Origin: a virus
Length of the DNA: 64,000 bases
Virus record (IMG/VR): IMGVR_UViG_3300005537_000002
Coordinates: 96,001 to 160,000 of that record
Strand: one strand, 5' to 3'
Shown: positions 587 through 4,270 of the stretch, piece by piece
Numbering within the stretch: the first letter of the stretch is position 1
How the letters are laid out: every line of letters begins with the position of its first letter
Translations under genes and position numbers: made by a program
Notes under the pieces: model-generated
What the model was told of the DNA's origin: nothing
The model's database searches: none
What the model saw: only the letters and a program-made list of their open reading frames with translations

Positions 587-1588
587 TTGGACGACAATGT
601 ATTCATGAGCGGTACCTTCAGTGTCGGTGGTTGGGTCGTGACGACTCTTTCGAACGGCACGGTAGCGTATGTAAGTTCCGGGGTATCAACGGTGTATGTT
701 ACACATAATGCAGTAGCTAGTACCTATACCCTCGAGTATAGAGACCCAACTAGGTTTCAGTCGAACCGACCACCGGACTTGCCGACATGCAAGTGTGCTA
801 GATCAGATGGTTGGGAGAATGACCTTACGTTAGACCGACCATCGGTATTGAATGAACATCAGTGGCAGCTATTCAAGGCAACTGGGTCCTTACGTGTGAA
901 TAGCAAGTTTACGGATGAACTACAACTACAAGTCCTAAAAGGGGAGCCTTGGATCCGACTCATCTCACGAGACGTAGCTGACCGTTACGAGGGTCACTAC
1001 CGAACCCTGTACGTCTGGAAGGACGAGTGGGTGTCCCGACTGTATAGCGAATATGAGCTAGCGTCAGTGATATTCGAGGCACTCGAGGACGAAGTTACGT
1101 TGATGACTGGAGACATTCGTACTACCGGTTGGAGTACTTCGGAGATTGACGGATATATGCCTTTGATGAGGTCGTTGCTGTTAGCACAGGAGACGCTGCC
1201 AGCTTCGGTGTCTCAAAAGCTGTTCGATGACTTACAGCGAGAGGATAGACATACGTTTGAGATAGTGATACCCAGTACGATCTGGCCTGACATTGAGTAT
1301 GCTATCGGTGGAGATGTGCTGCAGCATGCGTTTTCGGTCCGAGTACGCGAGCGAGGTATCATTGGGTTCCTCTGCATACAGCCGGAGGACTGTTACTTAC
1401 CACCTATCGATATGGTTGTGCTTCACTATGTGAGCCTAGCGACCGACGAACTGCGGCACGTATCTACGGGGGTATTCAGTACACATCATAGATATCCACT
1501 TGCAGAACACTACTGGAATAGTCTACTAAACGGCAACCTCAACGCTCCATTTCTGCTCATAGATCGGAAGGACTATTATGAGGAGTAA
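587..1588 (+). CDS. hypothetical protein
   Basis: Long ORF; start moved to TTG 587 (GGAGG at 574-578). Confidence 0.8.
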   Translation: MDDNVFMSGTFSVGGWVVTTLSNGTVAYVSSGVSTVYVTHNAVASTYTLEYRDPTRFQSNRPPDLPTCKCARSDGWENDLTLDRPSVLNEHQWQLFKATGSLRVNSKFTDELQLQVLKGEPWIRLISRDVADRYEGHYRTLYVWKDEWVSRLYSEYELASVIFEALEDEVTLMTGDIRTTGWSTSEIDGYMPLMRSLLLAQETLPASVSQKLFDDLQREDRHTFEIVIPSTIWPDIEYAIGGDVLQHAFSVRVRERGIIGFLCIQPEDCYLPPIDMVVLHYVSLATDELRHVSTGVFSTHHRYPLAEHYWNSLLNGNLNAPFLLIDRKDYYEE

Positions 1589-2036
1589 GCGAGCGACTTG
1601 CAGAGACTGTAGGAAACCACTAGACTCCGAGAACACCACCTACTGTAGAGAATGCGCTGCGAAACGAGCCGTAGAGCGACGTAGGAAAGGCCCCTTTGCT
1701 GAGCGGTGGCATGAAATACTCTACGTTATGGAGGATGTGTTACGTAGGGAGCAGTATAGTACGGGTTTAGTCTCTGGAGTTCGCTTCGTAAGATTGAGTC
1801 AGGTTAAGCGTATCGCACTTCTAAGTAGCGTAGCCCTACACTTATGGCCTAGGTCAAAATATGAAAGTCTGCTAGCAGAACTAGTAGATGCTCCAGTAGA
1901 CGGACTGTTGGGAGTCTATAACCATCGAGGACTCTCACGGGAGAGTATAGCTACTTACAGTGTAGGGTTCGAGCGGGACTTGAAGCGTGTCACTCGAGAC
2001 CGGTTAGGTTTCATCATAGTCGATGATACCGACTAG
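1578..2036 (+). CDS. N-terminal zinc-finger protein
   Basis: CRDC...YCREC followed by a basic helix. Confidence 0.75.
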   Translation: MRSKRATCRDCRKPLDSENTTYCRECAAKRAVERRRKGPFAERWHEILYVMEDVLRREQYSTGLVSGVRFVRLSQVKRIALLSSVALHLWPRSKYESLLAELVDAPVDGLLGVYNHRGLSRESIATYSVGFERDLKRVTRDRLGFIIVDDTD

Positions 2037-2068
2037 GCGGGCGAGTGCGCTTGTTTTTGAGATAGTTA

Positions 2069-2102
2069 CCTCTTGTTTTCAACCGGTGGAATTTATTATA
2101 AT
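2069..2102 (+). promoter_or_regulatory. phage early promoter (repeat family copy 1)
   Basis: CCTC-TTGTTT(2073-78)-N18-TATAAT(2097-2102), AT-rich leader, GGGAGG. Confidence 0.85.
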
Positions 2103-2144
2103 ATAAATAATAAATAAAATACTACACCACTAAAGGGAGGGAAA

Positions 2145-2678
2145 GTGCTTACTATTACTCAGTTGGGTGTGGAGACTGACAAACTCTACCTTAGGGAGTT
2201 CGAGACTCACGCTGTCCACTTGAGGAGGAAGTTTGCCGGAAGGGTACTACTTCGTACCGTAAACCTACTAGATCCGGTCGACGTAATAGATGCGTGGTCG
2301 AACGTGCAGAGTGCTGATATCGTCATAGCACACGTGAGTGCGGACTTTCTGTACGTGTTGGACTCATTGACCGATTATCAGTCCGGGCGTAACTTAGTCC
2401 GGGATGAGATTGTGAACAAGCGTAGTACGGGTGCTATGGTGATACTAGTAGCGCTTTCTCACTGCTCTTGGGATGAGGAAGCAGCCTTCGAAGGTTTGTA
2501 TCCCGTACCCAATCTTGCGGGAGTGAAGAAGTTCCCCGGTGGAAGGGATTCTGCTTGGAGAGCTGTCGTGACTGAAGTTGAGCGTACTATCAAGCACTAC
2601 TTGAGGATTTGCTCTAGGTGTGGTACTGATGTACCGACTGGCTTCAAATATTGCTCCGATTGTGGGGCTGAAGTCTAA
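2145..2678 (+). CDS. TIR-like domain protein with C-terminal double zinc ribbon
   Basis: D..L.E.E.H..L.R, ADIVIAHVSADFL, VILVALSHCSW, RDSAWRAV match the TIR_2 pattern; CSRC...CSDC tail. Confidence 0.75.
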   Translation: MLTITQLGVETDKLYLREFETHAVHLRRKFAGRVLLRTVNLLDPVDVIDAWSNVQSADIVIAHVSADFLYVLDSLTDYQSGRNLVRDEIVNKRSTGAMVILVALSHCSWDEEAAFEGLYPVPNLAGVKKFPGGRDSAWRAVVTEVERTIKHYLRICSRCGTDVPTGFKYCSDCGAEV

Positions 2679-2694
2679 AAGAAGGGGGTTACAT

Positions 2695-3156
2695 ATGCCA
2701 AAAATTGTGTCAGTGTTCTGTGCTGAGAAGCAGAAGGCAGACCGTAAACTAGCTGATGAGTTGGGGGTTAGTCTAGAGTTGTGTGGTATTCCGTATTACG
2801 ATATGAGTACGTCACTCATAGCAGGTACCGAGTTGCGGACGGAACTGGATCGCTTCTGGAAGGAGTCGACGTTAGGAATACTGATCATGTCAAGTAGCTT
2901 ACTCTCAGAGGCTTCCAGGGAGAGTACTGTCATTGGGAGAATGGTACGGAAGTGCTTTGCAGAGGCTATGCCTAGTGAGAAGGCTAGTGGGAGCTACGCT
3001 GTGATGGCGAGTGACTGTCTCCTGGACTTCTCGGAGCTTTCTTACCTGAGACGGGAACTTACCGCCAGCGGTGACTTTTGGTTGAATGCTAATACTCAAG
3101 AACGGGATGTGTCGTGGAACCTCTTTATGAGAAAGTTGCTATCCGATCTGAGGTAA
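2695..3156 (+). CDS. degenerate TIR-like domain protein
   Basis: VF...DRKLADEL..., IAGTE..ELD, ILIMSSSLL; start moved to ATG 2695 (SD GAAGGGGG). Confidence 0.65.
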   Translation: MPKIVSVFCAEKQKADRKLADELGVSLELCGIPYYDMSTSLIAGTELRTELDRFWKESTLGILIMSSSLLSEASRESTVIGRMVRKCFAEAMPSEKASGSYAVMASDCLLDFSELSYLRRELTASGDFWLNANTQERDVSWNLFMRKLLSDLR

Positions 3157-3159
3157 TAT

Positions 3160-3501
3160 ATGTGTAACAATGGGGTAACTAATACTCACCCAACAGCAGG
3201 ACTAACGACAACCGGTTGGTTGTTTCAGTTCGGCCCTATCGATGTAGACTTGACAGAAAGGCCGTTTCTACATGAGGTTATGTGGCTATACGCGGTCAAG
3301 TCAAGAGACCGTAGACTGCCGGAAGACGTAAGACTGGCATGTTGCGAAGTTGTAGCTGTCTGTCAGTCAAAAACTATGCAGAATCACGGCCATCACAGAC
3401 GACGTGCTTTTACAGACAGAATGGTACGACCTGAGCTAACGCAAGCACAGTTAGCAGTGTTTACTGAGGCGAACGAGTGGATGCAACTAGTACGAAACTA
3501 A
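3160..3501 (+). CDS. hypothetical protein
   Basis: Co-oriented ORF; RLPED motif shared with the first ORF. Confidence 0.75.
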   Translation: MCNNGVTNTHPTAGLTTTGWLFQFGPIDVDLTERPFLHEVMWLYAVKSRDRRLPEDVRLACCEVVAVCQSKTMQNHGHHRRRAFTDRMVRPELTQAQLAVFTEANEWMQLVRN

Positions 3502-3511
3502 GGAGAAATAT

Positions 3512-4270
3512 ATGTCGGATAACCCTACTAGCGCGACATTTAGACGACTTAAAGCGTTAATGGCTTTAAGAGACCACCCGGGTACGCCAGAAGAAGCTGC
3601 ATCCGCCGCAGCTAAAGTACAGGAGTTACTAGCTAAGTACAATCTAGAGGTAGCACAGGTGGAGCAGTTCGGTTCTACGGATGACTACACAGAAACACCC
3701 GTAGACCTGGGTGTTCCTTTCGGTGTACCTACCGCTTGGCGTAGACAGCTACTAGCCGAGATAGCCGGCTGTAACTTCTGCCAGACTGTCGGTATTAAGT
3801 ACGCTGCTAGTGCTATGCATCAACCTGCGACTAAGCAACCCCCACAGATCTCTATGCTAGTAGGTCAACCTCATAACATAGAGGTCGTTAAGTACCTCTT
3901 TACGTACTTAACTGGAGCTATCTCCTCTTTGGGGGAAGCGAGTTGGTTAGGCAATAGATATCGTGTCCGCATGCCGAAAATGCAGTACATGGACAGCTTC
4001 TACAAAGGAGCTGTATTAACTGTTGCGCGTCGGTTGAGGAGTCAGCAGTCAGTTACTAGCTCTGCTGACAGAAACATGCAAGCGTTGATGGTCGTGAAGG
4101 ACCAAGCTCTTGCGACCGCAGTCAAAAAGTTTCACCCGAAATTGGTTGCTGGACCAATAACTAATGCAACCAGTGCGGACGCTTTCAATGCCGGTGTACA
4201 GGCCGGCAACCGTATACAGATTAACAAAGGCCTAAGCGGAGCTACTCCGAAACCAAAGCAACTGAATTAA
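3512..4270 (+). CDS. DUF2786 domain protein
   Basis: RLKALMAL...TPEEAASAAAKVQELLAKYNL; later VEVVKYLFTYL and SFYKGAV motifs. Confidence 0.85.
   Translation: MSDNPTSATFRRLKALMALRDHPGTPEEAASAAAKVQELLAKYNLEVAQVEQFGSTDDYTETPVDLGVPFGVPTAWRRQLLAEIAGCNFCQTVGIKYAASAMHQPATKQPPQISMLVGQPHNIEVVKYLFTYLTGAISSLGEASWLGNRYRVRMPKMQYMDSFYKGAVLTVARRLRSQQSVTSSADRNMQALMVVKDQALATAVKKFHPKLVAGPITNATSADAFNAGVQAGNRIQINKGLSGATPKPKQLN

Follow-up and report, generated by a model that had tools for sequence, protein, structure and literature searches.

RESULTS

Two adjacent TIR-like genes in a phage genome

We examined a 64,000-nucleotide stretch of the IMG/VR virus record IMGVR_UViG_3300005537_000002 (bases 96001 to 160000 of the record; hereafter, the window), which near its beginning carries two adjacent open reading frames (ORFs) on the plus strand, ORF A (P0001) and ORF B (P0002), with 16 nt between them (Table 1). 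The initial annotation had described the pair as tandem genes for degenerate TIR domains, the first of them fused to a double zinc ribbon and both directly behind a strong early promoter. Our analysis bears out the adjacency and the TIR identity of the two genes but not the idea that they are merely tandem paralogues, since the pair matches the domain order of longer, fused proteins: ORF A and ORF B very probably encode separately what a small, phage-only protein family carries as a single fused chain, and they are the first two genes behind a sigma-70-like promoter. This relationship, together with the absence of ORF B from the closest relative phage, is what the sequence comparisons add to the initial annotation.

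A fused protein family with the domain order of ORF A and ORF B

Five relatives of ORF A (P0004, P0005, P0007, P0011, and P0052; 349 to 375 amino acids) extend beyond the zinc ribbon into a second domain, giving a layout of TIR-like domain, linker, zinc ribbon, linker, and TIR_2, that is, the same order as in ORF A followed by ORF B. Three of these five C-terminal domains (C-domains) pass the Pfam TIR_2 threshold, with 33.0, 37.6, and 33.5 bits, and a profile of all five compared with the PDB matched only TIR structures, weakly (AbTIR, PdTIR, Cat1, and SEFIR). The C-domain family also aligns with the TIR repeats of P0009, a cellular-type protein described below (hhalign probability 96.7%, E = 4.3e-10), and is distantly related to the family of N-terminal domains (N-domains) to which ORF A belongs (hhalign probability 88.7%). 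The family alignments rest on 6 to 12 sequences, and the one that includes the P0009 repeats is too diverse for pattern scanning. Our literature search found no TIR-zinc-ribbon-TIR family.

The connection of ORF B to this family emerges with profiles only. Pfam TIR_2 scores ORF B at 16.7 bits (E = 0.011; 16.2 bits in the genome scan), under the 28-bit threshold, and pairwise BLASTP gave no significant similarity either between ORF A and ORF B or between ORF B and any of the fusions. By contrast with these pairwise comparisons, a profile of the five fused C-domains, built without ORF B and run with hmmsearch over the 754 ORFs of the phage genome, picked out ORF B alone (E = 1.7e-6, the next best being 2.5). 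With hhalign, ORF B aligned to the C-domain family end to end over 131 columns (E = 2.4e-5 to 3.9e-5), at a score of 34.5 versus a maximum of 19.1 in 30 shuffles. Landmarks common to both include GSYAVMASDCLLD in ORF B against KSYxVVxxxCxxD in the C-domains, as well as a C-terminal SW-x6-L helix, and language-model features group ORF B with TIR_2 clusters (0.94). The view that ORF B is TIR-like is thus upheld, for a much diverged protein and at the level of profiles. Because its match falls exactly at the second domain of the fused proteins, we read the pair as their split counterpart, in which ORF A and ORF B would together make up one functional module.

Word-indexed searches with ORF B, and searches with the combined ORF B and C-domain profile, found no stand-alone ORF B-like protein elsewhere. 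The G+C content of ORF B equals that of its surroundings. Its frame is open from a GTG at position 2620, and the upstream extension that this allows (2620 to 2694, plus strand) runs across the codons for the zinc ribbon in ORF A. A longer ORF B and a frameshift product joining the two ORFs were both considered and judged unlikely, since ORF B begins at an ATG of its own, at 2695, behind a good ribosome-binding site; the joined product is further disfavored by the short family forms elsewhere, which likewise end directly after the zinc ribbon.

ORF A as a predicted TIR_2-type domain with a single zinc ribbon

Residues 1 to 152 of ORF A are assigned to a TIR_2-type domain by both sequence comparison and structure prediction, in agreement with the initial annotation. 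Pfam TIR_2 itself (PF13676; gathering score, 28 bits) gave no match to ORF A, and PADLOC matched its ThsB1 model to ORF A only, weakly (E = 1e-4, 19.5 bits). The closest relative outside the family is P0009: phmmer aligned ORF A with its residues 1543 to 1673, the last of four TIR repeats, at E = 3.8e-11 and 30% identity, and this repeat in turn scores 36.5 bits with Pfam TIR_2 (threshold, 28). A profile of seven N-domains aligned to the four P0009 repeats at a hhalign probability of 99.0% (E = 8.9e-18). In the ESM Atlas, the model of P0001 has a pTM of 0.80, and its ten nearest structural clusters all lie at TM scores of 0.75 to 0.80 over 136 to 139 residues; TIR_2 is present in at least 93% of the members of eight of these ten. 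Single-sequence AF2 models reached pLDDT values of 41 and 45, and Foldseek searches with them returned noise.

P0009, the nearest cellular-type relative of ORF A, is a 1674-amino-acid LRR-Roc-COR protein with four tandem C-terminal TIR_2 repeats, encoded after an AAA ATPase gene (L016:4275-9299) on a metagenome contig without a taxon. A capture from Ktedonobacteria, at which the initial annotation hinted, would be conjecture on this basis. In the feature space of the ESM Atlas, the cluster nearest to the ORF A TIR domain is unnamed and consists entirely of Uroviricota proteins (58 proteins of about 155 amino acids; score, 0.95), which may point to a larger group of TIR-like phage proteins not connected by the sequence searches.

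The zinc ribbon behind this domain is single and not double as initially annotated. ORF A has four cysteines where a double ribbon would have eight, and the DZR model (PF12773) stays below threshold (21 bits versus 27.3), aligning only with its first half (positions 1 to 20 of 45). Zn_Ribbon_1, at 27.9 bits (threshold, 25), is the sole significant Pfam feature of ORF A.

Variation at the catalytic position

The initial annotation could not place the catalytic Glu in either protein with confidence, and this difficulty was justified: neither domain family has an invariant Glu, and the alignment is of low confidence in this segment. Where canonical TIR_2 domains have a Trp and the catalytic Glu, ORF A carries a conserved, family-specific insert of 6 to 12 residues (LTDxQSGNNL). 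HMMER and HH-suite agree in aligning N83 of ORF A with the canonical Glu, at low confidence, and the N83 column is Asn in 8 of the 12 members. One helical turn after N83 lies an acidic pair, D87-E88, with Glu in the E88 column in 8 members and Ala in the other 4. For ORF B, the canonical Glu column falls on E76 and holds Glu in three of six members and Asn, Pro, and Asn in the remaining three. Both families also lack the Trp found before the catalytic Glu. The residues that are invariant in the N-domain family, namely, D58, S65, C107, W109, D135 (Glu in P0006), and W138, are structural residues of the TIR_2 subtype. With no invariant Glu and with structural residues as the invariant ones, the family as a whole does not appear to be held together by catalysis.

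A small, phage-borne family

An exhaustive HMMER search with ORF A over 1.84 billion representatives yielded about 12 proteins homologous to its residues 1 to 150. All homologues with genomic context sit in phage-like contigs, and as far as this context shows, the family appears to be small and phage borne. Other searches added no members: in IMG/VR, a pattern scan returned nothing but the window's own record, two such scans returned no relative among 185,579 GTDB species genomes, a scan of JGI metagenomes found no contigs beyond those already in the family set, and word-indexed searches with ORF A and ORF B returned only the query itself. Used singly as queries against PDB sequences, the two proteins matched zinc ribbons (L40e) or nothing, with no TIR among the matches, and NCBIfam and PHROGs offered nothing useful for either protein.

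The closest relative of ORF A, P0003 (47% identity), is encoded on a 1.4-kb soil contig (L008), where the gene that follows it is a homologue of window ORF 3160-3501 (65% identity). Since P0003 directly adjoins this homologue, ORF B is precisely absent there. Such presence or absence between close relatives is typical of accessory arms-race genes. The fused forms occur on a 46-kb viral operational taxonomic unit and its relatives (L011, L012, L020, and L014), on a 19.8-kb contig (L013), and on short contigs, and their contigs carry many small unannotated genes and phage-type replication genes.

In L011/L012 and L014, which belong to a different soil phage lineage, a gene for a sponge-like Acb2/Tad1-hairpin protein lies about 1 kb, or two to three genes, downstream of the fused gene (Table 1). 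The intervening two genes encode proteins of 135 to 149 amino acids without known function.

The transcription unit and its promoter

The initial annotation placed the two genes first in their transcription unit, which the sequence supports, with a sigma-70-like promoter and, before it, a terminator-like hairpin directly upstream of ORF A (Table 1). The hairpin would close the upstream unit, the last gene of which is a 152-amino-acid ORF (1578 to 2036, plus strand). This ORF, which belongs to a transcription unit separate from that of the pair, has a CxxC-N11-CxxC motif at its N terminus, and PHROGs link it weakly to endonuclease VII (E = 8e-4); a homologue with 51% identity precedes the ORF A homologue in L008. 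With the next promoter copy at about 6034, the unit headed by ORF A and ORF B should comprise roughly nine small genes. The fourth of them (3512 to 4270, plus strand) encodes a protein with DUF2786 and DUF7168 (phrog_421, E = 4e-35), and the other partner genes gave no informative match.

The promoter itself is real, but there is nothing special about it. The motif CTTG-N20-23-TATAAT occurs in 45 copies on the plus strand and 9 on the minus strand of the genome, compared with a mean of 1.4 in shuffled sequence, and 18 of the plus-strand copies lie in the window. These copies, with the consensus CCTCTTGt(t/a)..-N-TTATAATATAAA, divide the small-gene region into units of 2 to 7 kb, and some share identity over about 40 nt, as do the copies at window position 2070 and genome position 92835. 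The promoter is of the host (sigma-70-like) type. Because copies occur all over the genome, the early timing that had been ascribed to it cannot be read from the sequence. The promoter is kept 5' of the ORF A homologue in L008, and in L012, L013, and L014, the fused gene is preceded at 40 to 95 nt by a sequence that agrees with the sigma-70 consensus at 10 to 11 of 12 positions. A family gene stands directly behind a sigma-70-like promoter in four contexts, the window included.

Table 1. Coordinates of the gene pair, its control elements, and related features (window positions unless a contig is named)
Feature	Position	Strand	Description
Terminator-like hairpin	2034..2053	+	6-bp stem with 3 GC pairs; T-run tail; TTTTTGAGAT
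Sigma-70-like promoter copy	2070..2108	+	CTCTTGTTT; -35 TTGTTT at 2073-2078; 18-nt spacer; extended -10 TTATTATAATATAAAT, with TATAAT at 2097-2102
ORF A (P0001, 177 amino acids)	2145..2678	+	GTG start; ribosome-binding site AGGGAGG
ORF A domain 1	residues 1-152		Degenerate, TIR_2-type (predicted)
ORF A domain 2	residues 156-177		Single C4 zinc ribbon, CSRC-N11-CSDC
ORF B (P0002, 153 amino acids)	2695..3156	+	ATG start; ribosome-binding site AAGGGGG; highly diverged, TIR_2-like
Promoter family copies	2072, 6034, 8319, 10427, 11586, 17550, 20367, 24944, 28235	+	Motif match
Promoter family copies, continued	31003, 35131, 37665, 44240, 46959, 52228, 52609, 59299, 60663	+	Motif match
Acb2/Tad1-hairpin genes (PF24729)	L011:12009-12269, L012:12009-12269, L014:5266-5508		60.1 bits in L011

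Partner genes and the phage genome

The genome that hosts the pair is 177,637 bp long in its record and has direct terminal repeats. Searches of it for SIR2_2, Macro, ThsB_TIR (PF08937), and NAPRTase matches were negative, and the operon neighbors of the pair contain no ThsA-type effector domains. Membership in a Thoeris system was considered and rejected, as the genome has no ThsA-type effector.

The source is a large, uncultured, tailed phage from soil, with genes for a large terminase, a portal protein, a family A DNA polymerase, and SNF2- and DEAD-type helicases; comparison with deposited phages gave no DNA similarity. Small plus-strand ORFs are tightly packed in the first 30 kb of the window. 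Elsewhere, the genome encodes a fusion of glutamine amidotransferase and QueC (L005:4474-6048, corresponding to genome positions 64474 to 66048; QueC, 171.5 bits), which suggests 7-deazaguanine DNA modification in this phage. A 420-amino-acid protein of its central region (L005:8922-10184; genome positions 68922 to 70184) has a chitinase-like domain of glycosyl hydrolase family 18 (52.6 bits).

DISCUSSION

A possible block of host TIR assembly

Bacterial TIR effectors and sensors act only once they have oligomerized head to tail, forming composite active sites, as in ThsB, TIR-STING, SPARTA, TIR-STAND, and TIR-Roc-COR proteins, and the TIR-STAND and TIR-Roc-COR proteins share the TIR_2 subtype with ORF A. 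Taking the evidence together, we consider interference with TIR-based bacterial immunity the most likely role of the gene pair. How it would do so is a matter on which we commit ourselves only tentatively: the module may be a TIR mimic, nonenzymatic or weakly enzymatic, that blocks the assembly of host TIR proteins. A phage TIR domain of the host subtype whose catalytic center is not intact would join or cap host TIR assemblies, upon which NAD+ cleavage or signal synthesis would stop. Two different TIR modules could fill the two asymmetric TIR interfaces, being joined covalently in the fused forms and presumably pairing noncovalently in the window phage, and the zinc ribbon might serve as a dimerization or docking element. 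A position next to the promoter is usual for first-expressed anti-defense genes, such as gene 0.3 of T7.

The initial annotation had proposed a two-subunit decoy alongside a phage-owned TIR weapon, and of the readings weighed here, the decoy is the best supported, on circumstantial evidence: the families have no invariant Glu, the phage has no effector, the family was found in phage-like contigs only, the genes are promoter proximal, and two fused forms have an Acb2/Tad1 sponge gene as a neighbor. Several observations weigh against it. In this phage, acidic residues persist close to the catalytic position (D87-E88 in ORF A and E76 in ORF B), so that its copies may still be active; the alignment of the catalytic helix is of low confidence, and the AF2 models, at their pLDDT values, give no placement. 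No Tad1/Acb2, Tad2, or RyR sponge match was found in the phage genome itself, and where an Acb2/Tad1 gene does accompany the fused form, which is in one soil phage lineage only, a terminator-like hairpin and a second promoter put it in a separate transcription unit. Moreover, our literature search found no described phage TIR decoy. A bolder version of the proposal, on the doubtful side of possible, is that the pair represents the first phage TIR-domain mimic directed against bacterial immunity and that the two nonidentical, catalytically degenerate domains of this module, fused in some phages and split in this one, cap both asymmetric interfaces of STAND, Roc-COR, or Thoeris TIR filaments or tetramers, which would stop NAD+ cleavage or the making of a signal.

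The main rival explanation, unlikely in our estimate but a serious contender, is that the phage owns an active TIR enzyme, with ORF A, ORF B, or both cleaving NAD+ or making or destroying a nucleotide derived from ADP-ribose. Variants of this reading would have the enzyme shut down host metabolism, pre-empt host TIR signaling or jam it with the wrong isomer, or process nucleic acids, the zinc ribbon binding nucleic acid or a partner. Bacterial TIR domains are usually enzymes, and in the window phage, acidic residues remain near the catalytic helix of both proteins, namely, D87-E88 of ORF A and, in line with the canonical Glu, E76 of ORF B. Family-wide, Glu is retained in 3 of 6 C-domains and 8 of 12 N-domains, and the motifs of the TIR_2 subtype are conserved (ADI, S65, C107-x-W109, and D135-x-x-W138, with Glu for D135 in P0006). 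The same Glu columns, however, vary to Ala, Asn, or Pro, and the members concerned would be dead enzymes kept by purifying selection for something else; the Trp before the catalytic Glu is gone from both families, the LTDxQSGNNL insert takes the place of the Trp/Glu segment in ORF A, and neither a sensor nor an effector partner is encoded by the phage.

A further idea is that the phage carries a defense or exclusion module, in which tandem TIR proteins, like multiple ThsB sensors, would guard the infected cell against competing phages. Thoeris loci often have several tandem TIR genes, and the weak PADLOC match of ORF A (E = 1e-4) is to ThsB1; but SIR2_2, Macro, and ThsB_TIR are all negative in the 177-kb genome, the operon has no effector-like gene, the closest relative phage has ORF A alone, and the residues needed for making a signal are not conserved, which together make this the least probable of the explanations that we weighed. 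Slightly more credible, although still quite improbable, is a role outside immunity, in which the TIR fold would act as a generic protein-protein scaffold tethered by the zinc ribbon, for example, in the regulation of host transcription or replication. Against it, prokaryotic TIR_2 domains characterized so far act in conflict systems, P0009, the nearest relative outside the family, is NLR-like, and an Acb2/Tad1 gene lies near two of the fused forms; what speaks for such a role is that the operon partners are all without known function, that the zinc ribbon is the sole Pfam-significant feature of ORF A, and that the 152-amino-acid ORF upstream also has a C4 motif.

Comparison with known systems

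Bacterial, plant, and animal immunity alike relies on TIR domains for its enzymatic and assembly core, and the block of host TIR assembly that we tentatively favor can be set against several known systems. The closest in sequence are the TIR_2 domains (PF13676) that terminate bacterial STAND, NLR-like, and Roc-COR proteins, with which ORF A shares motifs along the whole domain (sADIVv-lS-FL, the vIPViLRpC-W strand, LP, and D-AW). Unlike these, ORF A is phage encoded and stands alone, with no NTPase or sensor, has the LTDxQSGNNL insert and a C-terminal zinc ribbon, and scores below the Pfam TIR_2 threshold. The ThsB proteins of Thoeris (types I, II, and IV) are likewise small TIR proteins, sometimes two in tandem, and ORF A has its weak ThsB1 match; in contrast to Thoeris, the phage has neither ThsA nor another effector, the pair has no PF08937 match and no conserved catalytic Glu, and it is carried by a large phage of lytic type behind a phage promoter.

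Phages defeat TIR signaling by sponging or degrading its signal (Tad1, Tad2, RyR, and others). The Tad1, Tad2, Acb2, and RyR-domain sponges would share their presumed target pathway, TIR-derived signals, with the pair but have no sequence or fold relation to it. Assembly interfaces are the target of pathogen proteins such as BtpA/TcpB of Brucella and TcpC of Escherichia coli, which block host signaling at TIR-TIR contacts. Vaccinia virus A46 is a TIR mimic that engages host TIR-TIR interfaces and blocks signaling as well (PMC2213104). Unlike the presumed targets of the phage pair, those of BtpA/TcpB, TcpC, and A46 are eukaryotic Toll-like receptor adaptors, and some of the bacterial proteins are active NADases. 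A46 itself has no TIR fold. For TIR mimicry between a phage and a bacterium, our literature search found no example; a TIR-nuclease of a giant virus has been floated, without tests, as a possible anti-defense protein (bioRxiv 10.64898/2026.10.11.758280).

The nearest precedent in logic is pCARD, a CARD-only protein of Acinetobacter phage 133 that weakens a CARD-dependent gasdermin defense of bacteria (PMC10312443). Both pCARD and the pair are phage-encoded, effector-less copies of a host immune assembly domain, and in the pair, the architecture consists of TIR and zinc ribbon only, with neither sensor nor effector. The two differ in that pCARD has a death fold and its inhibition has been demonstrated, whereas the pair has a predicted TIR fold, with two such domains plus a zinc ribbon, and its inhibition is only proposed. 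A family of TIR-zinc-ribbon-TIR proteins that is restricted to phages and has no Pfam or PHROGs entry is a defined new target even if the pair turns out to be enzymatic. Its series of fused, split, and single-domain forms is a natural set of constructs for testing the idea of TIR poisoning. If true, a phage TIR protein that poisons TIR assembly would be a third escape route, beside the sponging or degradation of signals and the copying of CARD domains, and would parallel, in the conflict between phages and bacteria, the TIR mimicry practiced by pathogens of animals.

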